Source: Candidatus Woesearchaeota archaeon
Lineage (GTDB): Archaea > Nanobdellota > Nanobdellia > Woesearchaeales > GW2011-AR4
NCBI GenBank assembly: GCA_016185755.1
Contig: JACPMX010000014.1
Coordinates: 117,868-181,867, forward strand
Length of the DNA stretch: 64,000 nt
Direction of reading: 5' to 3'
A program made the translations under genes and the position numbers. Below are positions 8,722 to 53,437 of the stretch, one piece after another; within the stretch, counting starts at the first letter, position 1, and every line of letters starts with the position of its first letter. The notes under the pieces are model-generated. The model did no database searches. It worked only from the letters and a program-made list of their open reading frames with translations, and was not told the DNA's origin.

Positions 8722-10617
8722 GTGGAACAAGCACAATTGCAGGATAACATAAAAAAAGCCGGCATTCTGGACAAGATAGATTCTCCTAAGGACATTAAAC
8801 TTCTCAGCAGAAAGCAGCTCAAAATGCTCGCAAGCGAAATAAGGCAAAGAATCCTGGAAGTAGTCTCAAAGAACGGAGGCCATCTTGGAGGCCCTTTAGG
8901 CGCAGTTGAGCTGACTTTGGCGGTTCATTGCATTTACAATGCCCCCCATGACAAGATAGTCATAGACACAGGCCATCAAAGCTACCCCCACAAGCTGATA
9001 ACAGGAAGAAGGGACAATTTCCATACTTTAAGGCAGTACAAGGGAGTCTGCGGCTTCTGCAATATTGAGGAGTCGGAATACGATGTATTCGGCGCAGGCC
9101 ACGCATCAACTGCAATTTCAGCAGCCTTGGGCATAGCAAAGGCAAGGGACTATAAGAAGGAAAAATACAAGGTAGTCTCAATAATCGGGGACGGGGCATT
9201 GACAGCAGGCCTCGCTTTTGAAGGCTTGAACAACGCAGGCGCATCAAAGACAGACATGCTTATCATACTCAATGACAACAGGATGTCGATTTCTCCAAAT
9301 GTAGGCGCGATATCAAACTATCTGAACAAGATTGTGCTTCATTCAGGCTATTTTGAATTAAGAAAGAAAACTGGAAATTTGCTTAAAAAAATCCCCGGAA
9401 TAGGAAAAGAAGGTGTTGAAAAGCTTAGCAGGGCAGAGGGAAAATTAAGGGTGCTCGGCACAGATGGAATTTTCTTTGAAAGCATGGGATTCCAGTACTT
9501 TGGGCCCATCGATGGGCATAATTTGGATGAATTGATTCCCGCATTGCAGAATGTAAAAAATCTTGAAGGCCCTGTCCTGCTCCATGTAAAGACGGAAAAG
9601 GGAAAAGGCTACTCATTTGCGGAAAAGGACCTTGACAAGTTTCATGGCATGTCGCCCTTTGACCCTGTAAACGGAAGCAAATATGTCACAACAACCAAGA
9701 TGACATGGACTGATGCATTTGCAAACGCATTGATAAGGATTGCGGAAGAAGACGAAAAGATTGTTGCCATAACAGCTGCAATGAAATCAGGCACCGGGCT
9801 GAACAAGTTTGAGAAGCATTTTCCTGAAAGGACGATTGATGTCGGGATTGCAGAGCAGCATGCCGTGACTTTTGCGGCAGGATTGGCAATTGCTGGAATG
9901 AGGCCTGTGTGCGCAATATACTCCACATTTTTGCAGAGGGCATATGACCAAATCATTCATGATGTTTGCCTTCAGAACCTCAATGTAATCTTTGCGCTTG
10001 ACAGGGCTGGCCTAGTAGGAGATGATGGCCCAACCCACAATGGGCCTTTTGACATCGCTTATTTCAGGCCCATACCGAACATAACCATTATGGTTCCAAA
10101 AGACGAGAATGAGCTGCAGCACATGCTTTACACTGCAACTAAAATAAAAGGGCCGAGCGCATTGAGATATCCAAGGGGAAATGGAATCGGCGTTGGCCTT
10201 GATCCTGAATTAAGGAAGCTTGAAGTCGGAAAAGGGGAAATCCTACAGGAAGGAAAAGACCTGCTTATTATAGGAATAGGCCCCATTCTTTACGATGCAA
10301 TGCAGGCAATTGACGAGCTGAAATGCAGCGCAGCAGTAATCAACGCAAGATTTGTCAAGCCTCTTGATGAAAATATGATTTTGAAATATGCGCGAAAGTT
10401 CAGGAATATAATGACCCTTGAGGAAGGGGTTTTGAGCGGAGGGTTTGGCTCTGCTGTTATGGAATTGCTCGAAGGCAGCGGAATAAAATCAAATGTAAAA
10501 AGGATTGGCATTCCCGATAATTTCATCGAGCACGGAAAGCAGGACATACAGAAAAAACTGGCGGGAATTGACAAGGAGAGCGTAAAAATTGCCATTAGCA
10601 GTTTATTGGTCAAATAG
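8722..10617 (+). CDS. dxs: 1-deoxy-D-xylulose-5-phosphate synthase (GTG start)
   Basis: 631 aa; TPP-dependent transketolase-like; GDG...N ThDP motif; first MEP-pathway enzyme. Confidence 0.9.
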   Translation: MEQAQLQDNIKKAGILDKIDSPKDIKLLSRKQLKMLASEIRQRILEVVSKNGGHLGGPLGAVELTLAVHCIYNAPHDKIVIDTGHQSYPHKLITGRRDNFHTLRQYKGVCGFCNIEESEYDVFGAGHASTAISAALGIAKARDYKKEKYKVVSIIGDGALTAGLAFEGLNNAGASKTDMLIILNDNRMSISPNVGAISNYLNKIVLHSGYFELRKKTGNLLKKIPGIGKEGVEKLSRAEGKLRVLGTDGIFFESMGFQYFGPIDGHNLDELIPALQNVKNLEGPVLLHVKTEKGKGYSFAEKDLDKFHGMSPFDPVNGSKYVTTTKMTWTDAFANALIRIAEEDEKIVAITAAMKSGTGLNKFEKHFPERTIDVGIAEQHAVTFAAGLAIAGMRPVCAIYSTFLQRAYDQIIHDVCLQNLNVIFALDRAGLVGDDGPTHNGPFDIAYFRPIPNITIMVPKDENELQHMLYTATKIKGPSALRYPRGNGIGVGLDPELRKLEVGKGEILQEGKDLLIIGIGPILYDAMQAIDELKCSAAVINARFVKPLDENMILKYARKFRNIMTLEEGVLSGGFGSAVMELLEGSGIKSNVKRIGIPDNFIEHGKQDIQKKLAGIDKESVKIAISSLLVK

Positions 10618-10751
10618 TGATTTTTTAAAATTATTTTATTTAATGGCAAAAGAGCTTAATGCGATGGGAAAGATAGAAATAAATCAAATAAAACCTAAAT
10701 TTTACATTAACTAAAACATTCAAAAATTAAATATAGAATAAAAACCAAAAA

Positions 10752-11822
10752 ATGATCCAGAATAACATCGGAAGGAGAAAATCCCGCAAAGTAAAGGTCG
10801 GCAAACTGTTCATTGGCGGAGATGCTCCCATAACCATCCAGTCAATGACCACGACAGACACAACTGATGTAAAGGCAACAATTGAGCAGATTCATGGTTT
10901 GGAGGAAGTTGGATGCGACATCGTAAGGGTATCCGCTCCTACAATGGAGGCTGCAAAGGCGTTAAAGGAAATCAAGGAAAATATAAGCATTCCTCTTGTT
11001 GTTGACATTCATTTTGACTACAGGATTGCCCTTGAGGCTGTCAAGAATGTTGACAAGCTGAGGATTAACCCCGGCAATATTGGAAATCCTGACAAGGTGC
11101 AGCAGGTTGTAAAGGCGTGCAAAGATTTTCAAGTCCCGATGAGGATTGGAGTCAATCTGGGCTCTTTGGAAAGAGATTTGTTTGACAAATACGGCTATTC
11201 TTCGGAGGCAATGGTTGAAAGCGCAATGCGCCATGTGAAAATCCTTGAGGAGCTTGATTTTTATGACACGATCGTTTCTTTGAAAGCATCTGATGTGCCA
11301 AGAATGGTGAAGGCATACAAATTGTTTGCAGAAAAAACTGATTATCCCCTGCACCTTGGTGTTACAGAAGCAGGCTCAAAATTGCCAGGCGCCATAAAAT
11401 CATCTATGGGGATGGGAATGCTTTTGTCAGAAGGGATTGGAGACACTTTAAGGGTTTCATTGTCAGAGGATCCAAAAGAAGAAGTCAAGGTCGGAAAGCA
11501 AATTTTAAGGAGCCTTGGATTGAGGAATGATGGAGTGCAGGTCACATCCTGTCCAACGTGCGCAAGGACAGAGATAGATGTAATCAAGCTGGTCGAGCAG
11601 CTTGAGAACGCAACTGAAAAAATAAAAAAGCCGGTGCATGTCGCAATCATGGGCTGCGCAGTCAACGGGCCGGGGGAGTCAAGAAAATCAGACATCGGAA
11701 TTGTAGGCGCGCCAGGAAACCATCTGCTTTACAAAGACGGCAAGATTGTTAAGAGAATAAATGATGATGAAATTTACGAAGTTCTTTTGAAGGAGATTAA
11801 TGAGAAAGCAAATGAATCGTAA
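10752..11822 (+). CDS. ispG: 4-hydroxy-3-methylbut-2-enyl diphosphate synthase (GcpE)
   Basis: 356 aa; GcpE family with C-terminal Cys ligands (CPTCART, GCAVNGPGE). Confidence 0.9.
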   Translation: MIQNNIGRRKSRKVKVGKLFIGGDAPITIQSMTTTDTTDVKATIEQIHGLEEVGCDIVRVSAPTMEAAKALKEIKENISIPLVVDIHFDYRIALEAVKNVDKLRINPGNIGNPDKVQQVVKACKDFQVPMRIGVNLGSLERDLFDKYGYSSEAMVESAMRHVKILEELDFYDTIVSLKASDVPRMVKAYKLFAEKTDYPLHLGVTEAGSKLPGAIKSSMGMGMLLSEGIGDTLRVSLSEDPKEEVKVGKQILRSLGLRNDGVQVTSCPTCARTEIDVIKLVEQLENATEKIKKPVHVAIMGCAVNGPGESRKSDIGIVGAPGNHLLYKDGKIVKRINDDEIYEVLLKEINEKANES

Positions 11823-12519
11823 AATTATACTTTTTTTGATATTGACTGTTTTTTTGATAAATATTGGAAATTCATTCGCTAAATCAAACGAATATTATAC
11901 TTGCGAATATTTCAATTCTGGTTTATGTATAGAAGTTTGGTTTAATACATCAATAAGTAATTTAACTGATAAACCTAGCGAATATGGGAAATTTCCATAT
12001 TACACCCAACAAGGAGACTATTTGTATATAGAAAAATTCATCGCAATTAATCATGGGGAAAAAATAAATAGCAGCACTACTTATACTTTAGATATATGGC
12101 CATTAGAATACAAGGGCATGGATGAGAGATTAACAAAATATGGACCTTATACCAATAATTATGGTAAAATTGATATCGAAATTCCTCCTTTAGCTAAAGG
12201 AGACAAGTTTGAATTAGATTATTTACAAAATAGTGTTTATATCAAAAAATTAAATGATCAACCAATTGGTAAATATTCTCATTGGTTTATAGAACTTTAT
12301 AAAGAAGGAGAATGGTTCATCGACGAGGATATTGCAGGAGAAATTGGTGGATATACCTCTATTTTTAATGGATTTAGAAGTCGAATCTTTCAAGTCAACC
12401 CTCCATTAGAGTTAGAAACATTTAGCGATGTAAGAAAACAAGTTAAGTATATCCTTCCTACATTTTTAGTTTCTGTAATAAGTTTAATTGTTTCTATATA
12501 TAGTTTAAGAAGAAGATGA
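11800..12519 (+). CDS. Secreted or surface protein with N-terminal signal/TM and C-terminal TM anchor
   Basis: 239 aa; AT-rich codon usage clearly lower in GC than the flanking MEP genes; overlaps ispG by 23 nt. Confidence 0.45.
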   Translation: MRKQMNRKIILFLILTVFLINIGNSFAKSNEYYTCEYFNSGLCIEVWFNTSISNLTDKPSEYGKFPYYTQQGDYLYIEKFIAINHGEKINSSTTYTLDIWPLEYKGMDERLTKYGPYTNNYGKIDIEIPPLAKGDKFELDYLQNSVYIKKLNDQPIGKYSHWFIELYKEGEWFIDEDIAGEIGGYTSIFNGFRSRIFQVNPPLELETFSDVRKQVKYILPTFLVSVISLIVSIYSLRRR

Positions 12520-12521
12520 AA

Positions 12522-12836
12522 TCAATTCCTTACAATAACTTTCTTCCTCTTATTCAGCGGCTCTATAACCAAAGTGTCGAACAAGTCAATCATCTTTCTG
12601 ACGAAAGGGCTTGATGTATTCAGCTTGTATAGCTTTGCATTGCCGATGTTCCTTGTTGGCTTTATTATCCCAAGCTCGACAAAATCGCTCCAAATCCTAA
12701 ATAAAGTGGTTCTTCCGATGCCGGCTCCCTCTGCAATGTCTGAAATAGAATAATCTAGCTCCCTGCCTTCTATCAAAAATTCCAAAACCTTGATTTTTGG
12801 TGTGTTATCAAAAATCTTAACCAATTTTGTCGTCAT
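12522..12836 (-). CDS. Winged-helix DNA-binding transcriptional regulator
   Basis: 104 aa; SISDIAEGAGIGRTTLFRIW helix-turn-helix segment. Confidence 0.5.
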   Translation of the reverse strand: MTTKLVKIFDNTPKIKVLEFLIEGRELDYSISDIAEGAGIGRTTLFRIWSDFVELGIIKPTRNIGNAKLYKLNTSSPFVRKMIDLFDTLVIEPLNKRKKVIVRN

Positions 12837-13043
12837 AGTATTATCTACTATTGGGAATATTCAAATATTTCTATTTTGCAAAGTATATTTCTGAGTATCA
12901 CTGGCCACTGGACATGGCTACGTGAACTATATAAATCAATAGATTTAACGCATTTAAAAAATAAAAGCCGCACAACTTGGCGGTACGGAAGCTTCAGAAC
13001 CTCAATAAATATGCTGGGCTATCAAGTATTTAAATTTTACTAT

Positions 13044-13156
13044 GCCGCGGTCGCATAACTTGGAAGTGCGGGAGCTTCAGAACCTCCTGTCCGAAAGGGC
13101 ATCTGGGTTCAAATCCTAAAAGGATTTGCTTTTGGGTGGAAATCCCAGCCGCGGCG
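13044..13156 (+). tRNA. tRNA-Leu(CAG), class II, with ~29-nt non-canonical intron in the T-loop
   Basis: Acceptor GCCGCGG/CCGCGGC; D arm CGCA/TGCG; anticodon stem-loop GGAGC-TTCAGAA-CCTCC; long variable arm GTCC-GAAA-GGGC. T arm is CTGGG-TTCAAAT...CCCAG, interrupted by TAAAAGGATTTGCTTTTGGGTGGAAATCC, whose own ends are complementary (GGATTT/AAATCC). Confidence 0.6.
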
Positions 13157-13236
13157 CTTATGTTCTACAAAAACTGCCTTTGCATTCAAAGGAAAGATTT
13201 ATAATCCAACTAAATGATACTTGCCTTGGGGGTTAC

Positions 13237-14400
13237 ATGAAACATCTATCCATTTTGGGAAGCACTGGCAGCATTGGCACCCAGACTCTTGATATTGCAA
13301 GGCAATTTCCGAATGAATTCAAGATCGTTGGACTGACTGCAAACAGGAATTCTGAATTGCTGTTAAAGCAGATAAAAGAATTCAAGCCAAAAGCTGTTGC
13401 GATAATGGACAAAAGCAAGGTTGATGATTTATTGAATTTTTCCTCGTGCCAGGTTTATTCAGGAATTGAAGGATTAAACAGGATTGCTTCATTGAGTGAA
13501 GCAGATACTGTTGTAAATGCACTGGTTGGAAGCATAGGAATCGAGCCGACGCACAATGCAATAAAATCAGGAAAAAACATTGCGCTTGCAAACAAGGAAA
13601 CGCTTGTGGCAGCAGGCTCCGTCATTATGGACGAAGTTAAGAAAAATAATGTGAATTTGATGCCGATTGATTCAGAGCATTCCGCAATTTTCCAGTGCCT
13701 CAATGGAGAAAATATAAAGGAAGTCAGCAAAATTACAATAACCTGTTCAGGAGGCCCGTTCAGGAACCATTCAAGAGAGCAAATGGAAAATGTTTCTTTG
13801 AAAGATGCACTGAAGCACCCGACATGGAACATGGGCAGCAAAATAACAATTGACTCTGCAACTTTGATGAACAAGGGATTTGAAGTCATTGAGGCGCATT
13901 GGCTGTATGATATGGACTATGAAAAGATAAAAGTCATAATCCATCCCCAAAGCATAGTCCATTCTTTGGTTGAATTTGTTGACCATTCGGTAATTGCGCA
14001 ATTGGGACTGCCGGACATGAAAATACCGATCCAATACGCATTGACCTATCCAAAGAGATTCCAAAATCTAAGCGCCCCATTGGACTTGGCAAAAATAAAA
14101 GCTCTTGAGTTCAGCGAGCCTGACTTTGAAAAGTTTCCATGCCTGAAATTTGCATATGAAGCCGGAGCAATCGGGGGGACTTTGCCTGCTGTCATGAACG
14201 CAGCAAATGAAATTGCAGTTCATGCATTCCTTGGGAATAAAATAAGGTTTTTGGACATACAAAGGCTTGTAAGAAAGCTGATGGACGGGCACAATTTGAT
14301 AAAAAGCCCCAGCCTTGGCAATATTCTTGAGACTGACAAAAAGACTAAAGAAGAAACATCTAAAATCATTGAAGAGGAGATTAGCATAAAGAATCAATAA
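13237..14400 (+). CDS. dxr: 1-deoxy-D-xylulose-5-phosphate reductoisomerase
   Basis: Starts MKHLSILGSTGSIGTQTLD (NADPH-binding motif); the supplied ORF begins earlier inside the tRNA. Confidence 0.9.
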   Translation: MKHLSILGSTGSIGTQTLDIARQFPNEFKIVGLTANRNSELLLKQIKEFKPKAVAIMDKSKVDDLLNFSSCQVYSGIEGLNRIASLSEADTVVNALVGSIGIEPTHNAIKSGKNIALANKETLVAAGSVIMDEVKKNNVNLMPIDSEHSAIFQCLNGENIKEVSKITITCSGGPFRNHSREQMENVSLKDALKHPTWNMGSKITIDSATLMNKGFEVIEAHWLYDMDYEKIKVIIHPQSIVHSLVEFVDHSVIAQLGLPDMKIPIQYALTYPKRFQNLSAPLDLAKIKALEFSEPDFEKFPCLKFAYEAGAIGGTLPAVMNAANEIAVHAFLGNKIRFLDIQRLVRKLMDGHNLIKSPSLGNILETDKKTKEETSKIIEEEISIKNQ

Positions 14401-14409
14401 TTTCTAAAA

Positions 14410-15591
14410 ATGAACTTTGCAATAATAGTTGCTGCGGGAAAGGGCAGGAGGATGGGAAAAAATGCAAACAAAGTTTTTTTGCCCCTGATGAGCAGGCCGA
14501 TGATTTGGCATGTTCTGGATATTTTCCACAGTTGCGGGAAAATCGATGAGATTATTGTAGTGGCTCAAAAGAGCGATTTTGAAAAAATCAGAGGGATTAA
14601 AAGCGAATACGGATTTGATAAAATAAAAAAAATTGTTGCAGGAGGAGAAGAAAGGCAGGATTCTGTCTATAACGGGCTGATGTCAATAAAGGCAAAAGAA
14701 GATGACATTGTCTTGGTACATAACGGAAGCAACCCTTTAGTCCTTGAAAATGAAATTGATGAATGCATCAATGCCGCAATAAAGTTTGATGCTGCTGTTG
14801 CAGGATTTCCGCTGAAAGACACAATCAAAAAGGCAAGCGGTGATTTTGTGGAAAAGACAGTAGACAGAAAAGACATTTTCCAAGTGCAAACGCCCCAGGC
14901 TGTGAAATACGGATTATTTGCTGAAGCATTCAAAAACGCCAAAAAGAAAAAACTTAAAGCAACCGATGATGTTTCCCTTGTCGAGGCACTTGGCAGGAAA
15001 GTAAAGATTGTCCGATGCTCTTATGAAAATATAAAAGTAACCACGCAGGACGACCTGAGAATTGCAGAGGGAATTTTGATGAGCAGGAATAAAACGAATA
15101 AGGATTCTAAGATTGGATTTGGGCATGACAGCCACAGGTTTTCAGCAAGCAGGAGCAGAAAGCTTGTTTTAGGAGGGTATATCATGCCTAATGAAACCGG
15201 GCTGGAGGCAAACTCTGACGGAGACCTTATTTTGCATGCCTTGTTCAACGCGATAAGCTCTGCAATCGGCATGAAGTCCCTTGGACACTATGCGGACCCT
15301 ATGCTTGAAAAAGGGGTTACTGACAGCAAGGAATATCTTCAGGTTATCCTAAAAAAATTAAACGAAAAAAACATGGGAATAAACAACATAAGCATTTCAA
15401 TTGAGGCAAAAAGGCCGAGGCTTGATGACAGCACTGACAAGATCATTCAATCTTTATCAAAAATACTGGCAATAAGCAAGGAAAGAATAGGGATTACCTG
15501 CACTTCAGGGGAGGGGCTGACGCCTTTTGGAAGAGGCGAAGGAATGCAGTGCTTTGCTGTTGTTTCTTTATGCTCTAGTCCCAATCAATAA
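14410..15591 (+). CDS. ispDF: Bifunctional IspD/IspF (MEP cytidylyltransferase + MEcPP synthase)
   Basis: 393 aa; N-terminal IIVAAGKGRRMG (IspD) and C-terminal GFGHDSHRF (IspF). Confidence 0.9.
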   Translation: MNFAIIVAAGKGRRMGKNANKVFLPLMSRPMIWHVLDIFHSCGKIDEIIVVAQKSDFEKIRGIKSEYGFDKIKKIVAGGEERQDSVYNGLMSIKAKEDDIVLVHNGSNPLVLENEIDECINAAIKFDAAVAGFPLKDTIKKASGDFVEKTVDRKDIFQVQTPQAVKYGLFAEAFKNAKKKKLKATDDVSLVEALGRKVKIVRCSYENIKVTTQDDLRIAEGILMSRNKTNKDSKIGFGHDSHRFSASRSRKLVLGGYIMPNETGLEANSDGDLILHALFNAISSAIGMKSLGHYADPMLEKGVTDSKEYLQVILKKLNEKNMGINNISISIEAKRPRLDDSTDKIIQSLSKILAISKERIGITCTSGEGLTPFGRGEGMQCFAVVSLCSSPNQ

Positions 15592-16419
15592 ATTATTGAA
15601 CGGGGATACATTTGGGTGATAAAGTCTTACAATTCTTGCGTTATAACCCATTGCCTTCAGATTTTCAGCCCTCACATAGTCAATTATTTCCATGGCTTTT
15701 CTTGCTACCGGGCGATATCCATCAGACTGTTGCATATGCCCTACTGCTCTTGCTAAGACGGTAAATAATTTTTCACTTAGCTTTATCCCTGAAGCTAAGG
15801 TCGACATGTCAAAATCCATTTGCCCGTGATGGCATGGTACAACAGCAAATAAATCCGGCAAACTGCTTTGTAATTGGGCGTACCTGCCAATTAAATCGGG
15901 AAGGCTTCCACAGCAATATAAGCCAAGATATGCCACTTTACCATCTGCGCGAAGTATTTCGGGTGATGGTTTTTTGTCTCTTAGTGTTGCCAAATCGAAT
16001 TTGACAAATGGAATATCATATTTCCGAATACATGGGAAGTATCTTTCAAGCAAATAGCTCCTAGGGAACCTAACGTCAACTCTTGTTACAGGTGCCCCAG
16101 CAAGGTGAGCGATTGCATAAGCCAAGAAACTTTTGCCAGAGCACCAATCAACATAATTAACATCAGGCTCCAGAAAACCGGCATTATCGATTTCACTCAG
16201 TAATGGCTTCAATATCCCCAACTTTATTTTATGGACAGTTGTTTTTTGTTCTCTAGCGAGGCTATCCACTCCCTCTTGGAGATGAGAATCCTCAAATAGC
16301 TTTTCTACCCTTTTTGAAGGTTTTGTTTCCTGCAACTCTTCACCAATTTTCCATCTTTCATGCAAACCACTGATTAGCTTGATTCTTTCTTCCAATACTT
16401 GGGATTTAGACATACTCAT
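15568..16419 (-). CDS. Putative SAM-dependent methyltransferase (Methyltransf_32-like)
   Basis: 283 aa; VDWCSGKSFLAYAIA motif-I-like segment and conserved Cys/His cluster. Antisense to the MEP genes and overlaps the ispDF 3' end by 24 nt. Confidence 0.45.
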   Translation of the reverse strand: MSMSKSQVLEERIKLISGLHERWKIGEELQETKPSKRVEKLFEDSHLQEGVDSLAREQKTTVHKIKLGILKPLLSEIDNAGFLEPDVNYVDWCSGKSFLAYAIAHLAGAPVTRVDVRFPRSYLLERYFPCIRKYDIPFVKFDLATLRDKKPSPEILRADGKVAYLGLYCCGSLPDLIGRYAQLQSSLPDLFAVVPCHHGQMDFDMSTLASGIKLSEKLFTVLARAVGHMQQSDGYRPVARKAMEIIDYVRAENLKAMGYNARIVRLYHPNVSPFNNLLIGTRA

Positions 16420-16499
16420 AAGAACTATGAGTCATTTAAAAAGTTTATGAACCCCAAAAATTAGCAAAGATTATATATGAAAATAATAATCTATATGTT

Positions 16500-17348
16500 A
16501 TGGCAATAAGCTCATACGCAAAAGTCAACCTTTACCTGAAGATAGGCAAGAAGCTCGGCTCAGGCTACCACAACATACAGTCAGTTATGCAGAAGATAGA
16601 GCTGAGCGACAGCATATCCATAGAGCCGATAAACGAGGATAAAATAATAGTGGAATCCACAAACAAGGAGCTTGAAAACGAGAACAATCTCGCCTACAAG
16701 GTTGCCATGCTTCTCAAGAAGAAATTCAAGGTAAGGCACGGAGTCAAAATTTTCATAGAGAAAAACGTGCCTCTTGAAGCAGGCTTAGGAGGGGGCTCAA
16801 GCAATGCAGCAACTGTCCTGATGAGCCTCAACAAGCTGTGGGGCCTTAAGCTCAAGGAAAAGCAGCTTATAGGGCTTGCTGCCCAGATTGGCTCTGACGT
16901 GCCTTTCTTCATTGGCGATAACGCAGCTCTCGTGGAGGGAATCGGCGACAGGATAAAGCGCATAAGGAAGTCGTTCAGCATCAATATAGTCCTCATAAAC
17001 CCGGGCTTCAGGGTCTCGACAAAATGGGCATATTCAGCTTTTGACAGGCAAAAACCAAAGATAAAGGCAAATGCCGATATTAAAAATCTGGTGAAGGCCA
17101 TAGAAAAAAAAGACATAAAAGAGATAGCAAGCAACCTGCACAATGATTTTGAGACTATTGTGACCAAAAAATACAAGGTGATAAACGACATCAGGACAAA
17201 TCTCCTCAGAAACGATGCCCTGAATGCCTGCGTCTCTGGCTCCGGTCCCACTGTCTTCGGCATCTTCAACAGCATCTATGAGGCAAGAGAAGCCTTTTTC
17301 AAGATTCAGTATGATTACCCGTTCGTGTTTTTGACAAAGACTATATAA
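16500..17348 (+). CDS. ispE: 4-diphosphocytidyl-2-C-methyl-D-erythritol kinase
   Basis: 282 aa; GHMP kinase motif PLEAGLGGGSSNAA. Confidence 0.85.
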   Translation: MAISSYAKVNLYLKIGKKLGSGYHNIQSVMQKIELSDSISIEPINEDKIIVESTNKELENENNLAYKVAMLLKKKFKVRHGVKIFIEKNVPLEAGLGGGSSNAATVLMSLNKLWGLKLKEKQLIGLAAQIGSDVPFFIGDNAALVEGIGDRIKRIRKSFSINIVLINPGFRVSTKWAYSAFDRQKPKIKANADIKNLVKAIEKKDIKEIASNLHNDFETIVTKKYKVINDIRTNLLRNDALNACVSGSGPTVFGIFNSIYEAREAFFKIQYDYPFVFLTKTI

Positions 17349-17454
17349 AGAAAATAAGCCATGATTATATGGGGGCTGTTCATTTTTTTTGGTTTGAAAT
17401 ATTTTTATTGGGCATGCCCTACTGGTCAAGGCAAGAATAACAAAAACATAAAAA

Positions 17455-18378
17455 ATGGTCGACATAAAAGTTGCAAGGCACGCAGGCTTCTGCTTTGGAG
17501 TGAAGAAAGCCATAGAGATTGCAGAGGAAGTGGCGCAAAGCAATCCTGAAAGCACATACGTGCTGGGCCAGCTTGTGCACAACGAGAAAGTCATAAAGAC
17601 GCTTGAAGGCAAGGGGATCATTTTTGTAGAGGATATTCATGAAATTCCGCAGAATGCAATAACTGTTTTAAGGGCCCATGGAGAGCCCGGAACAACTTAC
17701 GAAATTCTTGGGCAAAAGTCAATAACAAAAGGCAAAAACCTGAACGATGCGACATGCCCCCTTGTCACTTTGGTGCATAATGTTGCAATCAAACTGAAGA
17801 GCAATGGCTATGAAGTCATAATCTTCGGCAAGCACAACCATCCCGAGGCAATAGGCACAAGCTACCATCTCAGGGGAAATGGAACTTTCATTGTAGAGCA
17901 TGAGGATGACTACCGGCAGGTCATTGACCACATCAAAAACAATAATTTTGGAAAAATAGCAATAATCTCCCAGACAACAATGTCAGTTCTTGGATATAAA
18001 AAGCTGATTGAAAATATAAATTCTAATTTTGGCAATAAATTTATTGAAATCCCGCTTGCGCTGAAAAACCTTGATGTGAAGTACGGCTTTGTGGATACAA
18101 TCTGCAACCCCACAAAGCAGCGCCAATCCGATATTGACGAGCTTGCCGGTGACCGCGACATGATCATAGTCATTGGGGGCAAAAACTCAAGCAACTCAAA
18201 GGAGCTTTATGCAAAGGCAAAAGAATACGGGATAGACTCATATTTCATCCAGTCGGCAGAGCAGATCCAAAAAGAATGGCTTAATGGAAAGCAAAGGATT
18301 GGAGTGACAGCGGGAGCCTCAACTCCTGATTACCTGATTGATGAGGCTGTTGAAAGGATAAAAGAAATCACTCGCTGA
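17455..18378 (+). CDS. ispH: 4-hydroxy-3-methylbut-2-enyl diphosphate reductase (LytB)
   Basis: 307 aa; LytB family with conserved Cys near N-terminus, middle and C-terminus. Confidence 0.9.
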   Translation: MVDIKVARHAGFCFGVKKAIEIAEEVAQSNPESTYVLGQLVHNEKVIKTLEGKGIIFVEDIHEIPQNAITVLRAHGEPGTTYEILGQKSITKGKNLNDATCPLVTLVHNVAIKLKSNGYEVIIFGKHNHPEAIGTSYHLRGNGTFIVEHEDDYRQVIDHIKNNNFGKIAIISQTTMSVLGYKKLIENINSNFGNKFIEIPLALKNLDVKYGFVDTICNPTKQRQSDIDELAGDRDMIIVIGGKNSSNSKELYAKAKEYGIDSYFIQSAEQIQKEWLNGKQRIGVTAGASTPDYLIDEAVERIKEITR

Positions 18379-19426: not shown

Positions 19427-19515
19427 TAGCCCCGGGCAGATTCGAACTGCCGTCAGAGCCTTTCCATTGCACTGCAACCAAAGGGCCCTATGCTTGACCG
19501 CTACACCACGGGGCT
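19427..19515 (-). tRNA. tRNA-Gln(UUG) with 16-nt canonical (37/38) intron
   Basis: Minus-strand acceptor AGCCCCG/CGGGGCT; anticodon stem-loop GGGCC-CUUUGG[intron TTGCAGTGCAATGGAA]A-GGCTC; T arm GGCAG-TTCGAAT-CTGCC; discriminator A. Confidence 0.6.
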
Positions 19516-35481: not shown

Positions 35482-36507
35482 ATGGGAAATTTTACAATAG
35501 ACGAGGCAACAGAGCAAATTCGAGAAATCCTAGATGAAAATGTGAGTATCATCCGCTCTTCTAGGCCTACACCTATGCTTCCAGAGTTAGTTCTTCAGAC
35601 AATTAAAAATTACCACTTGAAAATGAGGGTTGTTGAAAATTCCCGAAACGGCCAAACACTTGACATTTATTTTAGACTTAAGAAAGCCAAGGGATATGGC
35701 GATGATCCGGGTGTTGTTACGCCTTCCCAAATCTGGAATTTTGAATGGATTAATGCGTTAAATGACCAAGCTCACGAAGAAATAATATGTGCTTCCAGAG
35801 AAAAATACAAAACTAAAGTAAAACTTGTAGAAGGGCTCAGGACAGCAGAAGTAGAAAAAAGAGATAAACTAGCCGAAGCTGTAAAAGCAAATTATGGGGA
35901 CGAATCTCTTCAAGCAGCAGGTTTAACTTTTAGACAATCTGTTGAAGATAAATTTCCCTTACCCAGATATAAAGAACCTGCAAAAGCCAAAATTCCATAT
36001 CATGAAGGTGTTCTTGTGAAGGATGGAGATGAAAAATTTAAGACAGCTTACATCGAAGATTCATTAATCGTTAATACTTATGATTTAACTACGCCTCACC
36101 ACATTAAGGTAATATGGATAAATCATGGACATCATCCTAGCTTTCAAGTTTACTTAGATAATACCGCTAAAACTGTTAGAAGCAAAATTCCCCTCATCAA
36201 AATGCAAAGAGGCGTTTTATCTTACGGCAATTTCGGAAGTCTTGGAGATATTTGTAATACTCTCTCCGGTTCCCCCGATGGAGTTCCTCCAAGGGTACCT
36301 TCTGTACTTGACGAAATACGCAGAGAAAATTTTCAGGTATATGGTACCTATTCAAGACCAGGGCCATCTTTTTTTTACCAAACAGCTAGCGGTTTTCATC
36401 AGTTTAGGAGTGCATTAAAACGAGTAGTCGAATCAGGCAAGGATTTTCACAGAGAACTAAAAGATCCAATTCCAGAACCTTCGATAGCCAGTCTTTTGAC
36501 CACTTAA
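35482..36507 (+). CDS. Hypothetical protein (341 aa), no recognisable domain
   Basis: Long ORF with coding-like composition; contains an HGHHP motif. Confidence 0.45.
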   Translation: MGNFTIDEATEQIREILDENVSIIRSSRPTPMLPELVLQTIKNYHLKMRVVENSRNGQTLDIYFRLKKAKGYGDDPGVVTPSQIWNFEWINALNDQAHEEIICASREKYKTKVKLVEGLRTAEVEKRDKLAEAVKANYGDESLQAAGLTFRQSVEDKFPLPRYKEPAKAKIPYHEGVLVKDGDEKFKTAYIEDSLIVNTYDLTTPHHIKVIWINHGHHPSFQVYLDNTAKTVRSKIPLIKMQRGVLSYGNFGSLGDICNTLSGSPDGVPPRVPSVLDEIRRENFQVYGTYSRPGPSFFYQTASGFHQFRSALKRVVESGKDFHRELKDPIPEPSIASLLTT

Positions 36508-36534
36508 GAGTTTTCTGCTTTTTTCAAAAAAAAA

Positions 36535-36640
36535 CGCGCCGGGGAGGATTCGAATTCGGGATGAAAGAGCAGTTACTCGATCATGCCCCCGGCCTAGAGG
36601 TTAGGAACCTCTCGCTCTATCCAAGCTGAGCTACCGGCGC
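36535..36640 (-). tRNA. tRNA-Arg(CCU) with ~31-nt non-canonical intron in the T-arm
   Basis: Minus-strand acceptor GCGCCGG/CCGGCGC; D arm GCTC/GAGC; anticodon stem-loop AGAGG-TTCCTAA-CCTCT. T stem GGGGG/CCTCC is interrupted by CATGATCGAGTAACTGCTCTTTCATCCCGAA before TTCGAAT; discriminator G. Confidence 0.6.
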
Positions 36641-36763
36641 ATATAATAATAGAAAACACGGCATTTTAAAAAGCTTGTTTTTATGTTCAGCATTCTAAGG
36701 TGTTATGTTTATATCAAATTCCTGCAAAAACATTTATATATACTGACTAAATAGTCCCTATAT

Positions 36764-37636
36764 ATGGAAATAAGGAACATCCAGAAGACTGGCGACATGC
36801 ATTATCTTTACCTTCCCACTTCTTGGTGCAGGGAGCACAAAATCGGCTCAAGGTCAAAAGTCAGCATAGGGCAGAGCAGCGATGGCTCGCTTGTCATCTC
36901 CCCCCAGATAGTCGAGGCCAAGCCGAAGCACCTGAAGCTGAGCATATCAGAGGATGACGAGGATGTCATACACAAGCTTGCAGTTGCCTGCTACATAAAC
37001 CCTGCAGGCTCCTTCGAGATAAACTTCGAGAAGGAAATGGACTTCACAAGGCTTCTTAACCAAAAAAGGCTTATAAGCCTGGAATCTGTCGAGATAGACA
37101 AGAAGCAGATAAGCTGCCACGGCGCAGTCTCTGTCGCTGACCCTGAATCATTGATAAAGACAATGACCAAGAAAATCAAGAACATGATAACCGTCATGCA
37201 GAAGGCCTACGACAAGGAGCTCATAGACAGGTACGAAGACGAGATTGACAGGAGCAAGATGCTCATTGACAAGTCAATAATAAGCTCCCTCACCTTTGAA
37301 AGAGCCACAAAATCAAAGACTATAGATTTATATTATATCTCCCTCATATCAAAGGATTTGGAAAGGATGGTCGACCATCTCATATGCGTGAGCAGCAAGG
37401 AGTCTGAATTCCTGACCATTGTCCATGACATAATAGACCAGCTTCATAATATAATGGAGAATACCCCGAGCCTTAATTGCAAGACAGCGCTTCAGTTTGT
37501 CAAGAAGGTAACAAAGATAGGCGGCTTCGAGGTCAAGGACATAAAAAGCTATGACAAGGAAAGAATCAGGCTTTCATTGGTTACAATTGCGGAGATTGTA
37601 ACGGACTGGGCCATAACAAAGGAGATAGAAAAATGA
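36764..37636 (+). CDS. PhoU-like regulator with N-terminal SpoVT/AbrB swapped-hairpin domain
   Basis: 290 aa; N-terminus MEIRNIQKTGDMHYLYLP (AbrB-like) followed by PhoU-like helical repeats. Confidence 0.5.
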   Translation: MEIRNIQKTGDMHYLYLPTSWCREHKIGSRSKVSIGQSSDGSLVISPQIVEAKPKHLKLSISEDDEDVIHKLAVACYINPAGSFEINFEKEMDFTRLLNQKRLISLESVEIDKKQISCHGAVSVADPESLIKTMTKKIKNMITVMQKAYDKELIDRYEDEIDRSKMLIDKSIISSLTFERATKSKTIDLYYISLISKDLERMVDHLICVSSKESEFLTIVHDIIDQLHNIMENTPSLNCKTALQFVKKVTKIGGFEVKDIKSYDKERIRLSLVTIAEIVTDWAITKEIEK

Positions 37637-46827: not shown

Positions 46828-48780
46828 ATGCTTGAATATGTTATTGGAGTCGGCATATCTTCCTTGCTTGCTGCAGTGTTGTTTTCATTCTATATCCTTA
46901 AAAAGCCAACTGGAACAGCCAAAATGCAGGAAATTTCCGAGGCAATACACAAGGGTGCACTTACCTTCTTAAGAAAAGAGTATGAAGTCATAGCAGTTTT
47001 TATTGCTGTTGTGGCATTGATAATGTATGTATTCCTTGAGAACGGCCACAGGCTTGCGGTATCTTTCATCATGGGCGGATTTGCGTCTGCGCTGGCCGGC
47101 AACCTTGGAATGAGGATATCAACAAAATCGAATGCAAGGGCGGCAGAGGCAACAAAATCCCATATAGGGGATGGCCTGAAAGTTGCCTTCTATTCCGGCG
47201 CCGTAATGGGCTTAAGCGTTGTAGGAATAGGCTTGCTCGGAGTTTCAATTTTGTATTTGGTTTTTGACGATCCGAGTATAATATACGGCTTTGGGTTCGG
47301 GGCCTCCTCAATTGCCCTGTTTGCAAGGGTTGGCGGCGGAATTTATACAAAAGCAGCCGATGTCGGAAGTGATTTGGTCGGCAAGGTTGAAAAAGGAATT
47401 CCCGAAGACGACCCAAGAAACCCTGCAGTCATAGCAGACAATGTAGGCGACAATGTGGGGGATGTTGCAGGCATGGGCGCCGACCTCTTTGAAAGCTATG
47501 TGAACAGCATAATAGCGGCAATGGTGATCGGGCTTGTCTTAAGCCAAGGCCACTTAATTTTTCCGCTGGGCCTTGCAGCGTCAGGTATTTTGGCGTCAAT
47601 AATCGGCATGTTTTTTGTAAAGGCAAAGGATGAGAAACATCTTTTTAGGGCATTGAACACAGGTCTGTATACAAGCACAGTTTTGGCTGCGATATTCGCA
47701 TTTATTCTTGTCAAGCACCAGGATCTTGGCATCGGAGTTTTCTACGCAACCTTGTCCGGGTTGATTGTAGGTGTTGTAATAGGCTGGATTACGGAATATT
47801 ACACATCGAACCGCAACAGGCCGACACAAAGCATAGCAATAGCTGCAAAAACAGGGGCTGGAACAAATGTGATACAGGGGCTTGCTGTCGGCATGCTTTC
47901 TACATTAATTCCGGTTGTTTCGGTTTCGATGGCGGTTCTTGTCGCTTACAAGTTTGCTGGTCTTTACGGGATTGCAATTGCAGGAGTGGGCATGCTCACA
48001 ACCCTTGGATTTACTTTGGCAATTGAAACTTATGGCGCTGTTGCCGACAATGCGGCAGGAATTTCGGAAATGGCCGACGTTGGAAAAGATGTGAGGAAAA
48101 AAACCGAAATGCTTGATGCAGTAGGCAACACGACAGCTGCAATAGGGAAAGGATTTGCAATGGGCAGCGCTGCATTGACTGCTCTTGCTCTTTTTGCCAG
48201 CTTCACCCAGATCACGAAAATTGAGGTCATAAGCATTTCAGACCCCAATGTAATTTTTGGGTTATTCATAGGCGGAATGCTTCCTTTCCTGTTCAGCTCT
48301 TTTGCAATGCAGGCTGTCGGAAAAGCGGCGTCAGAGATAGTTGAGGAAGTAAGAAGGCAGTGGAAATCCATAAAAGGATTGGCGCAGGGAAAAGCAAAGC
48401 CTGACTATGAGAAATGCATCGCAATAAGCACCAGAAGCGCCTTGAAGCAGATGACAATTCCTTCCATTCTTGCAATTCTTGCTCCGATACTGATTGGATA
48501 TTTATTCGGTCTCGAAGCCCTTGGAGGCCTGCTTGTCGGCTCGATTGTATCGGGATTTTCGCTTGCGGTTTTCATGGCCAACTCCGGAGGAGCATGGGAC
48601 AATGCGAAGAAATACATAGAGGCTGGAAACCTTGGTGGCAAAGGAAGTTACGCCCACAAGGCCGCTGTTGTAGGAGACACAGTTGGGGACCCGTTCAAGG
48701 ACACAGCAGGGCCTTCATTGAACATATTAATCAAGCTGATGTCCATTGTTGCGATTGTGTTTGTGCCGCTGATTTTATAA
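46828..48780 (+). CDS. hppA: Membrane-bound H+/Na+-translocating pyrophosphatase, predicted K+-dependent type
   Basis: 650 aa; [10 protein letters not shown] motif (Ala at the K+-dependence position); DVGADL and DNVGDNVGD motifs. Confidence 0.9.
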
Positions 48781-51358: not shown

Positions 51359-53437
51359 TTGTTGATGTTCCTAAGCATTGTTATTGTTATAAGTGTTTTG
51401 GCATTGCTGTTTGCAGGCTATCTGGCAAGAGGAGTTCTTAGGAGAGATACCGGAACAGCTGCAATGCAGGAAGTTTCTAATGCAATCAAGATAGGCGCAG
51501 AGGCATTCCTGAAAAGGCAGTACACCACAATAGCGATAATGTCGGCAGCCCTTGCTGTCATCATATATGCCGCTTATGCGTTATTTGGCAATCCGGGCCT
51601 TGGATGGCGCACATCAGTCTCATTTGTCTTTGGAGCAATCAGCTCGGGAATCGCAGGCATTGTGGGCATGTGGATTTCAATAAGGACAAACATCAGGACT
51701 GCAAGCGCTGCAAGAAAAAGCATGAATGACGCTTTTGTAACAGCGTTCAGGGGAGGGGCGGTTTCCGGCATCGTGATAGTTGCGATGTCATTGCTTGGAG
51801 TCGCGCTGATATATTATGTGTTCAGCATCGGCGTTGATCCTAAGGAAGTTCCTTTCCTGATTGTAGGATATGGATTTGGAGCTTCATTTGTAGCTTTGTT
51901 CGCCCAGCTTGGCGGCGGAATTTATACAAAAGCAGCCGATGTCGGAAGTGATTTAGTCGGCAAGATTGAAAAAGGAATTCCCGAAGACGACCCAAGAAAC
52001 CCGGCAGTCATAGCAGACCTTGTCGGAGACAATGTGGGGGATTGTGCTGGCAGGGGCGCTGACCTATTCGAAAGCACAGCTGCTGAAAATATAGGTGCAA
52101 TGATACTTGGTGTTGCCCTCTATCCCATTTTCGGAGTAAAAGGAGTTATGTTCCCTCTTGTTGTAAGGGCATTTGGGCTTGTAGCAACAATAATCGGAAT
52201 AATGACCGTCAAGCTCAGAAACGAAAATGAAAACCCGATGACAGCATTGAACAGGGGATACTACATAACCAGCTTCCTTGCAGCAATTGTATTTTACTTC
52301 ACTACAAAATGGCTTCTCCCAGGCACGGGAAACTGGTTTTTCTTTGCCGGCTTGGTTGGGCTGGCAACGAGCATTTTGATTGTGTGGATAACAGTTTATT
52401 ATACTGAATCAGACCCGTTCTTTTTTAAAAACAGCCCTGTAAGAAAAATTGCAAAAGCATCATTGACAGGTCATGCAACCAACATAATTTCAGGATTTGC
52501 AGTAGCAATGGAAGCAACTGTGCTGCCCGTGATTGTCTTATCATTGGCGCTTCTTTCCTCGTACAAGCTCGGATTGATGAGCGGCGTTGCGCATGGCGGC
52601 TTATACGGAACTGCAATCGCAACAATGGGAATGCTTGCAACAGCAGCTTACATCCTTGCAATGGACAATTTCGGCCCGATAACAGACAATGCCGGCGGAA
52701 TTGCCGTTATGGGCGGGGCTCCAAATGAGGTAAGGAAAAGAACAGACAAGCTTGATGCTGTCGGCAACACAACAAAGGCATTGACAAAAGGCTATGCCAT
52801 AGGAAGCGCCGCATTAGCTGCATTCCTGCTGTTCTCAGCCTATCTTGATGACGTTGCAAAGCATATTGGGGTAAAGGTTGTTTCAGTTGACATTGCAAAA
52901 ATTGATGTATTTGTAGGGGCTTTGATAGGCGCAATGCTTATTTTCCTTTTCAGCGCGTTTGCCATAAGGGCTGTGGGAGACACAGCTTACTCAATAGTAA
53001 ATGAAGTAAGAAGGCAGTGGAAAGCCAAAAAAGGGATAATGACCGGCAAGGAAAAGCCCGACTATGCAAGAGTTGTTGACATTTGCGTCAAGGCTTCTCT
53101 CAAGGAGATGGTTTTGCCCGGATTGGTTGTTGTTGCGGTCACAGTAATTGTTGGAGTTGTCTTGGGATATGAAGCTGCAGCTGCATTTTTGATGGTTGCC
53201 ACAATCACAGGCATTTTGATGGCCCTTCTTCTTAACACAGGCGGAGGAGCATGGGACAATGCGAAGAAGCTCATTGAGGAAGGCGAGCACGGCGGAAAAG
53301 GTTCAGATGCGCACAAGGCAGCTGTCACAGGCGACACAATCGGAGACCCTTTCAAGGACACTGCAGGGCCTTCATTGCACGTTTTGATTAAGCTGTTGAG
53401 CACTATAACTTTGGTTCTTGTGCCGCTGTTTGTGTGA
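51359..53437 (+). CDS. hppA: Membrane-bound pyrophosphatase paralogue, predicted K+-independent type
   Basis: 692 aa; GNTTKALTKG (Lys at the K+-dependence position). Confidence 0.9.
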   Translation: MLMFLSIVIVISVLALLFAGYLARGVLRRDTGTAAMQEVSNAIKIGAEAFLKRQYTTIAIMSAALAVIIYAAYALFGNPGLGWRTSVSFVFGAISSGIAGIVGMWISIRTNIRTASAARKSMNDAFVTAFRGGAVSGIVIVAMSLLGVALIYYVFSIGVDPKEVPFLIVGYGFGASFVALFAQLGGGIYTKAADVGSDLVGKIEKGIPEDDPRNPAVIADLVGDNVGDCAGRGADLFESTAAENIGAMILGVALYPIFGVKGVMFPLVVRAFGLVATIIGIMTVKLRNENENPMTALNRGYYITSFLAAIVFYFTTKWLLPGTGNWFFFAGLVGLATSILIVWITVYYTESDPFFFKNSPVRKIAKASLTGHATNIISGFAVAMEATVLPVIVLSLALLSSYKLGLMSGVAHGGLYGTAIATMGMLATAAYILAMDNFGPITDNAGGIAVMGGAPNEVRKRTDKLDAVGNTTKALTKGYAIGSAALAAFLLFSAYLDDVAKHIGVKVVSVDIAKIDVFVGALIGAMLIFLFSAFAIRAVGDTAYSIVNEVRRQWKAKKGIMTGKEKPDYARVVDICVKASLKEMVLPGLVVVAVTVIVGVVLGYEAAAAFLMVATITGILMALLLNTGGGAWDNAKKLIEEGEHGGKGSDAHKAAVTGDTIGDPFKDTAGPSLHVLIKLLSTITLVLVPLFV

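Follow-up and report, generated by a model that had tools for sequence, protein, structure and literature searches.

The gene described here occupies positions 36535–36640 on the minus strand of a 64,000-nucleotide stretch of DNA (the ‘window’) from Candidatus Woesearchaeota archaeon (DPANN), and corresponds to a 106-nt precursor of tRNA-Arg(CCU). Of the two flanking open reading frames, one ends at 36507 and the other starts at 36764, thus placing the tRNA gene in intergenic DNA. The Rfam tRNA model (RF00005) matches the gene from end to end (model positions 1–71 of 71; 42.4 bits against a gathering score of 29), with 38 nt taking the place of the 7-nt T-loop in the alignment. The gene does not encode its CCA, and the discriminator base is G73. 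The arms of the tRNA, the exons and intron, the putative transcription signals and the elements of the proposed splicing motif are collected in Table 1.

Table 1. Features of the tRNA-Arg(CCU) gene and of its intron, with positions given in the numbering of the window
Feature	Positions	Strand	Sequence or remark
Acceptor stem		minus	GCGCCGG/CCGGCGC; 5′ strand followed by U8 A9
D arm		minus	GCUC-AGCUUGGAUA-GAGC, then G26
Anticodon arm		minus	AGAGG-UUCCUAA-CCUCU
Anticodon	36603–36605	minus	CCU (reads AGG); from the sequence
Variable loop and T-stem 5′ strand		minus	AGGCC; GGGGG
5′ exon	36586–36640	minus	tRNA positions 1–53, acceptor 5′ strand to T-stem GGGGG
Intron	36555–36585	minus	CAUGAUCGAGUAACUGCUCUUUCAUCCCGAA, 31 nt, position 53/54 (between G53 and U54)
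3′ exon	36535–36554	minus	T-loop UUCGAAU, T-stem 3′ strand CCUCC, acceptor 3′ strand, G73
TATA-box-like element	36664–36672	minus	TTTTTAAAA, −32 to −24 from the first tRNA base; putative archaeal promoter
Nine-T run	36526–36534	minus	directly after G73; putative archaeal transcription stop
Central helix (H), exon strand	36588–36591	minus	C48 G49 G50 G51, pairs with CCCG (36557–36560)
Central helix (H), intron strand	36557–36560	minus	CCCG, intron nt 26–29; invariant in 17/17 distinct introns
5′ bulge	36585–36587	minus	3 nt, G52 G53|C; 5′ splice site after G53; geometry drawn by hand
Inner helix (h′), 5′ strand	36581–36584	minus	AUGA, intron nt 2–5, pairs with UCAU
Inner helix (h′), 3′ strand	36561–36564	minus	UCAU, intron nt 22–25
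Distal intron hairpin	36567–36578	minus	GAGU, loop AACU, GCUC
3′ splice region	36554–36556	minus	A A|U54, without a closing outer helix; drawn by hand

Removal of the 31 nt leaves a 75-mer whose MFE fold is a perfect cloverleaf (−34.1 kcal/mol), with a predicted spliced junction at G53–U54 that reads ...GGCCGGGGG|UUCGAAUCC...; reading along the sequence, we find that no other 31-nt deletion restores the UUCGAAU T-loop beside GGGGG. An intronless gene from a metagenome, with identical exons from the anticodon loop to the 3′ end, scores 65.4 bits against the Rfam tRNA model. The locus is confirmed as a genuine tRNA-Arg gene once the 31-nt insert is removed. In a preliminary description of this DNA, a tRNA-Arg(CCU) gene had been placed at coordinates that prove exact and that the full-length Rfam match bears out, although its strand (minus) was left unstated and is added here; the 31-nt insert had been located between GGGGG and TTCGAAT, at about 53/54, and that exact string is present at the intron positions of Table 1. 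The further claims, that a complete cloverleaf is obtained only on removal of the insert and that standard tRNA finders often miss such genes, agree with the folding and deletion results above and with ARAGORN, which, when run on the window, makes no call for the tRNA-Arg gene at 36535–36640.

NCBI taxonomy places Candidatus Woesearchaeota in the kingdom Nanobdellati (DPANN group)—one of the lineage groups to which introns of this sort had been ascribed beforehand. The window, with a GC content of ~42%, encodes GatD, a GatE-like protein, Cdc48, an archaeal-type V-ATPase and CDP-archaeol synthase, as well as ribosomal proteins L1, L10 and S15, an RNA polymerase subunit E-like Rpb7 and FtsZ. Two further features of its gene content are recorded here in their own right: a bacterial-type MEP/DOXP cluster at 8722–18378 (Dxs, IspG (GcpE), Dxr, a fused IspD-IspF, an IspE-like GHMP kinase and IspH (LytB)), a pathway mentioned in passages of two DPANN/Woesearchaeota genomics papers (PMC8204110, PMC8421398); and a pair of full-length membrane H+-pyrophosphatase genes (46828–48780 and 51359–53437; Pfam H_PPase E-values of 1e-267 and 2e-256), lying less than 5 kb apart beside the V-type ATPase operon.

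Both of the tRNA genes in the window are interrupted. The second, tRNA-Gln(UUG), lies on the minus strand at 19427–19515 and has a 16-nt intron (19462–19477) at the canonical 37/38 site, where drawing by hand gives a BHB motif that is near-strict, its central helix containing a single U-U mismatch. It scores 46.6 bits in a local Rfam scan but is missed by the whole-window scan at the gathering threshold; ARAGORN reports it as ‘tRNA-???’ with a 4-base anticodon.

Codon usage bears directly on whether tRNA-Arg(CCU) is required. Of the 427 arginine codons counted in 26 ORFs of the window with Pfam support, 268 (63%) are AGG and 119 are AGA, whilst the four CGN codons together contribute 40. As AGG is the main arginine codon of the window, a tRNA that reads it directly is unlikely to be dispensable; tRNA-Arg(CCU) is therefore very likely needed, and its intron very likely spliced.

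In a canonical 37/38 intron, each cut falls after the second base of the 3-nt bulge found 3′ of each strand of a 4-bp helix—a geometry that follows because the anticodon stem ends at pair 31–39—and, drawn by hand, the same geometry is seen at the tRNA-Gln gene of the window. In our model of the tRNA-Arg precursor, the splice sites likewise fall 2 nt 3′ of each strand of the 4-bp central helix, that is, directly behind G53 and intron nt 31. On the 5′ side, AUGA:UCAU provides the flanking helix that closes the 3-nt bulge GG|C. On the exon side, C47 and U55 are unable to pair, and the only pair that can be drawn by hand for an outer helix (h) is an isolated G46-C56. A strict hBHBh′ motif is ruled out for the T-arm intron, since C47 and U55 cannot pair; the 3′ bulge is left unclosed, and the motif is therefore of the relaxed HBh′ form. 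The presence of a BHB or hBH motif at the junctions had been set beforehand as the test on which the intron should stand or fall, and it is this relaxed form that was found.

Shuffling the intron 200,000 times, whilst holding fixed the geometry and the splice sites (which are set independently by the cloverleaf), gave central and inner helices that were both 4/4 paired in 0.034% of cases (3.4e-4); the pairing at the junctions exceeds chance. The cloverleaf body combined with the BHB register has a predicted free energy of −38.2 kcal/mol, 3.4 kcal/mol above the MFE fold of the precursor (−41.6 kcal/mol), in which the pairing of the G-run is shifted by one to two bases. A third fold, in which a closed T-stem encloses the intron hairpin, comes to −36.1 kcal/mol.

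This last fold lends itself to a different reading of the gene, namely that the 31 nt are never removed and that the mature tRNA is an unusual structural variant, with an enlarged T-loop and an extra hairpin. Conserved contacts between the T-loop and D-loop shape every tRNA; an insert that parts G53 from U54-U55-C56 would break them. We return to this possibility below, where the relatives of the gene bear upon it.

Relatives were gathered with DNA patterns of the tRNA gene itself, because the neighbouring 341-aa protein is an orphan. This protein, HYX08_06050, is encoded on the plus strand at 35482–36507, with a block of GatE and small ORFs on one side and the 3′ end of the tRNA gene on the other. 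NCBI annotates it as hypothetical and assigns it to a Candidatus Woesearchaeota archaeon; no Pfam domain is recognised in it, and among 5.8 billion clustered proteins it matched only itself. Its gene is also carried by the samples behind SRR12113431, SRR12113420 and SRR12113430. A counterpart is absent from this position in the relatives (in one of these, L010, the gap from GatE to the tRNA is ~60 nt), and HYX08_06050 may be a recent insertion beside the tRNA gene.

A loose exon-anchored pattern, scanned against one genome per GTDB species, returned 14 matches. Half of these (L006, L008, L011, L013, L014, L018 and L019) arose by chance and have no tRNA upstream; the other half share the architecture of the gene, each with exactly 31 nt inserted, and come from six Woesearchaeota metagenome-assembled genomes and one contig labelled as Methanosarcinales. 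The latter (L009; CAZSIU010000022.1, ‘uncultured Methanosarcinales archaeon’) is a contig of ~8.5 kb that follows the Woesearchaeota gene order, carrying a Woesearchaeota-type two-intron tRNA-Arg gene with GatE and V-ATPase subunit I as neighbours, and is probably misbinned. A stricter pattern, allowing 0–40 nt at the insert site, was used to search JGI and ENA metagenomes and gave 23 contigs, with the 31-nt insert present in 16 and no insert in seven. In sum, the 31-nt insert is seen at the same place in 23 further contigs (the six genomes, the Methanosarcinales-labelled contig and 16 from metagenomes).

The seven genes of the other class lack exactly the 31 nt: their exons are identical from the anticodon loop to the acceptor 3′ strand, and most are syntenic with the gene in the window. 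The boundaries of the intron are therefore independently confirmed. Gene order in most loci runs GatE - tRNA - PhoU-like - V-ATPase subunit I, as it does in the window, and the neighbouring proteins of these loci share ~55–97% identity; given this conserved synteny, we take the genes to be positional orthologues.

A second intron site lies in the D-loop, following G19 or A20, where many of the orthologues have an intron of 17–109 nt (L007, L009, L012, L015, L017, L020, L021, L024, L026, L029, L033, L036, L037, L041 and L042). These D-loop introns fall into several sequence families, with the 73- and 109-nt versions resembling a 34-nt version plus inserted sequence; for the family of 34–36 nt, a relaxed motif can be drawn by hand (GCUU:GUGC, bulge GG|A, GAAGC:GCUUC, AA|A). 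At its gathering threshold, Rfam found none of the D-loop-intron tRNA-Arg genes among the relatives. All four states of the orthologous gene occur: intronless, T-arm intron only, D-loop intron only, and both.

The locus also varies in its arrangement. In the window, the tRNA cassette (promoter, gene and T-run; 36526–36690) is inverted with respect to the flanking GatE and PhoU-like genes, and the same is true of L012, whilst in L020 (3150–3300), L010 (1350–1500), L007 and others the cassette is co-oriented with its neighbours. In L020, which is the closest relative and whose PhoU-like protein is 97% identical, the situation in the window is reversed: the D-loop carries an intron and the T-arm none. 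Such a pattern suggests a recent rearrangement or allele replacement at the tRNA-Arg locus.

Across 17 distinct sequences, the proposed structure shows standard pairs in 100% of cells. The central helix retains 4/4 pairs in all 17, but the search patterns fixed its exon strand, and because of this it falls outside the covariation test; its intron strand, CCCG, is invariant in 17/17 even though the search pattern left it free. Elsewhere the helices have changed in step. The first pair of h′ is A-U in ten sequences, G-C in five and G-U in two, and, in the distal hairpin, one pair changes from A-U to G-C and another from U-G to C-G or U-A. Double changes are seen at four pairs, divided equally between the intron helices and the anticodon stem. 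As a control, the 3′ partners were slid by 1–3 columns, upon which pairing stood at 39–52% and the double changes at 0. The intron CCCG and AA are invariant, whereas the bases of the apical and internal loops vary freely; column identity within the intron is nonetheless 95% across these diverged relatives, and its length is always 31 nt. Outside the transcribed region, the TTTTTAAAA box recurs at about −32 to −24 in nearly all loci with enough upstream sequence, and T-rich 3′ flanks are found in nearly all relatives.

These data allow the two readings in which no intron is spliced to be weighed. According to the first, an old tRNA-Arg gene was disabled by insertion of the 31 nt into its T-arm and persists as a non-functional pseudogene, with AGG read by another tRNA; the fall in Rfam score from the 65.4 bits of the intronless orthologue to 42.4 bits, and the absence of an ARAGORN call, are what this would predict. 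A disabling insertion sits badly, however, with an insert fixed in length and position over 24 contigs whose neighbouring proteins have diverged to ~55–97% identity, with exons that remain intact and an anticodon stem that has undergone compensatory change, with covarying intron helices, with a conserved promoter box and T-run, with the dominance of AGG amongst arginine codons, and with junctions that match a splicing motif. We consider it highly improbable.

The second is the permanently enlarged T-arm introduced above. Covariation in the hairpin does show that a structure is maintained, as this reading would have it, and the T-stem-closed fold is available to the precursor. Against this, and in addition to the broken T-loop/D-loop contacts, a splicing motif accounts for the invariant CCCG and AA, which an extra arm does not; relatives with identical exons manage without the 31 nt; and a similar insert at 53/54 in ARMAN-2 has been treated as an intron (PMC3239211). 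Retention of the insert in the mature tRNA thus strikes us as extremely unlikely. Our preferred interpretation, which we hold with high confidence, is that this is a functional Woesearchaeota tRNA-Arg(CCU) gene interrupted by a 31-nt protein-spliced intron at position 53/54.

Other classes of intervening or embedded RNA were also looked for. A self-splicing group I or group II intron is rejected, the insert being 31 nt long, whereas the ribozyme core of such introns runs to hundreds of nucleotides; Rfam, run permissively over 36450–36750, returned tRNA only. In archaeal pre-tRNA-Trp, the intron encodes a C/D box guide RNA, with a C box of RUGAUGA and a D box of CUGA. A guide of this kind is likewise rejected here: intron nt 2–6 offer a partial RUGAU, but there is no conserved CUGA, 31 nt is too short and Rfam gives no match.

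A more general possibility is that the intron is spliced but has been kept for a function of its own—as a stable circular small RNA, as a checkpoint on tRNA-Arg supply, or as protection of the T-arm/3′ end from integrating elements. Its constancy might be read in this way, with a length that is invariant and a column identity of 95% in a gene whose D-loop intron ranges from 17 to 109 nt, as might the preservation by covariation of a distal hairpin that the endonuclease motif does not need. Yet the apical- and internal-loop bases vary freely, Rfam matches only tRNA, conserved C/D boxes are absent when looked for by eye, and several relatives, the closest among them, have lost the intron but kept the gene. 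As for integrating elements, the T-arm, with or without its intron, has no match in viral contigs, and in none of them does this end of the tRNA occur in surroundings like those of Woesearchaeota. A dedicated role for the intron therefore seems distinctly unlikely to us. The single viral-contig match to the 3′ exon (L043) is set aside as unrelated: it is a GC-rich fragment ending in GCGCCA, without a 5′ half, and is probably a bacterial att-like tRNA remnant.

For the spliced tRNA-Arg gene, we infer the remaining steps—transcription signals, removal of the intron by EndA, ligation and order of processing—from established knowledge of archaeal tRNA splicing. Transcription would proceed from the TATA-box promoter and stop at the T-run. 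In the precursor, the 5′ strand of the T-stem would pair with the intron rather than with its usual partner, C48–G51 forming the 4-bp central helix with CCCG; G52, G53 and C would then make up the 3-nt bulge closed by AUGA:UCAU, and the 3′ site, AA|U54, would lie open 2 nt past the central helix. EndA is expected to cut after G53 and after the final A of the intron, and an RtcB-type ligase to join the exons. Only then would the T-arm form, to be followed by end-processing, CCA addition and modification.

The enzymes themselves are not encoded nearby. Pfam finds no EndA domain in the 46 ORFs of the window, tblastn with Methanocaldococcus jannaschii EndA (a query checked against PDB 1A79) detects no EndA in the window or in any of the fetched loci, and there is no RtcB gene in the window. 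A database search with the same query retrieved a 211-aa EndA that bears the label Candidatus Woesearchaeota (P0097), as well as several of 170–206 aa with the label Nanoarchaeota. All consist of a single alpha unit, made up of an N-terminal and a catalytic EndA domain, and are collinear with the alpha4 enzyme of M. jannaschii, with the Tyr-His-Lys triad intact and no internal insertion; their extra length is due to a Lys-rich N-terminal tail and not to an internal loop. Because they belong to other genomes and were picked up by similarity to an alpha4 enzyme, they do not fix the type used by the host itself.

Published work links the architecture of EndA to its substrates: the alpha4 and alpha′2 forms require the strict motif, whilst the (alpha-beta)2 and epsilon2 forms cut relaxed ones (PMC3239211). 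A survey that included one Woesearchaeota genome describes, for several DPANN lineages, an alpha4-type EndA bearing an ‘L3’ loop, alongside an increase in disrupted tRNA genes (PMC5829648). The retrieved proteins raise the idea that Woesearchaeota might remove T-arm and D-loop introns of the relaxed HBh′ kind with a single-subunit, M. jannaschii-like alpha4 EndA that lacks the specificity loops known so far (CSL/ASL), the T-arm intron being old, vertically inherited, held to length by selection and repeatedly lost by precise deletion. We offer this combined scenario tentatively, and on balance doubt it; were it true, either the broad substrate range would be achieved by an undescribed route, or there would be an unrecognised partner subunit.

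The intron type is already known in archaea, and both the 53/54 site and DPANN hosts appear in the literature (PMC4090602, PMC3239211, PMC5829648), with 53/54 included in a published list of non-canonical intron sites (PMC4090602); our searches of the literature found no paper detailing this intron or Woesearchaeota tRNA introns. The T-arm intron of tRNA-Arg leaves the current picture of archaeal tRNA splicing unchanged. For its intron models, tRNAscan-SE 2.0 drew on Crenarchaeota/Euryarchaeota and Thaumarchaeota as training data, and it has no such models for DPANN (PMC8450103). ARAGORN misses the gene and Rfam misses its two-intron relatives, with the result that Woesearchaeota tRNA sets may look wrongly incomplete; with the relatives collected here, intron models for DPANN could readily be trained and tested. 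One orthologous gene in four intron states also makes a natural series for the gain and loss of tRNA introns, and the tRNA-Arg with its T-arm intron a concrete substrate for testing the range of a DPANN splicing endonuclease.

Amongst known systems, the tRNA-Pro of ARMAN-2 shares with our tRNA-Arg a DPANN host and a protein-spliced BHB-type intron at 53/54, on the border between T-stem and T-loop. It has introns at both 53/54 and 59/60 (PMC3239211), and so differs in amino acid identity, in its motif, reported as strict hBHBh′, and in the second intron within the T-loop, where the tRNA-Arg of the window has a single T-arm intron of the relaxed HBh′ form. The enzymes differ too: ARMAN-2 has a three-unit epsilon2 EndA, whereas the Woesearchaeota-labelled EndAs that we retrieved, from other genomes, are single alpha units. 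DPANN variants of EndA have been linked to more disrupted tRNA genes (PMC5829648).

Thermoproteales and other Crenarchaeota resemble the present case in having short introns away from 37/38 (at 20/21 and 53/54, for instance) with relaxed HBh′ or hBH motifs and, as in this gene family, several introns per gene that may be present or absent between close relatives (PMC4090602, PMC4033280). They are hyperthermophilic, however, whereas the host here is a mesophilic-type DPANN archaeon of ~42% GC; and they use an (alpha-beta)2 EndA with a Crenarchaea-specific loop that is absent from DPANN (PMC5829648). A relaxed HBh′ motif outside the anticodon loop is also found in the pre-tRNA-Glu(UUC) of Methanopyrus kandleri (Kaneta et al. 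2018, PMC5829648), in this case at 20b/21 in the D-loop—the site of the second intron in our relatives—as opposed to the T-arm, and alongside an EndA that is an (alpha-beta)2 heterotetramer without the specific loop (PMC5829648). Closest to hand is the 37/38 intron of tRNA-Gln(UUG) in the window: it has the same bulge geometry and the same final AA as the T-arm intron, and the same chemistry would be expected of it, but it sits in the anticodon loop, draws on the anticodon stem as its outer helix and thereby approaches the strict hBHBh′ form.
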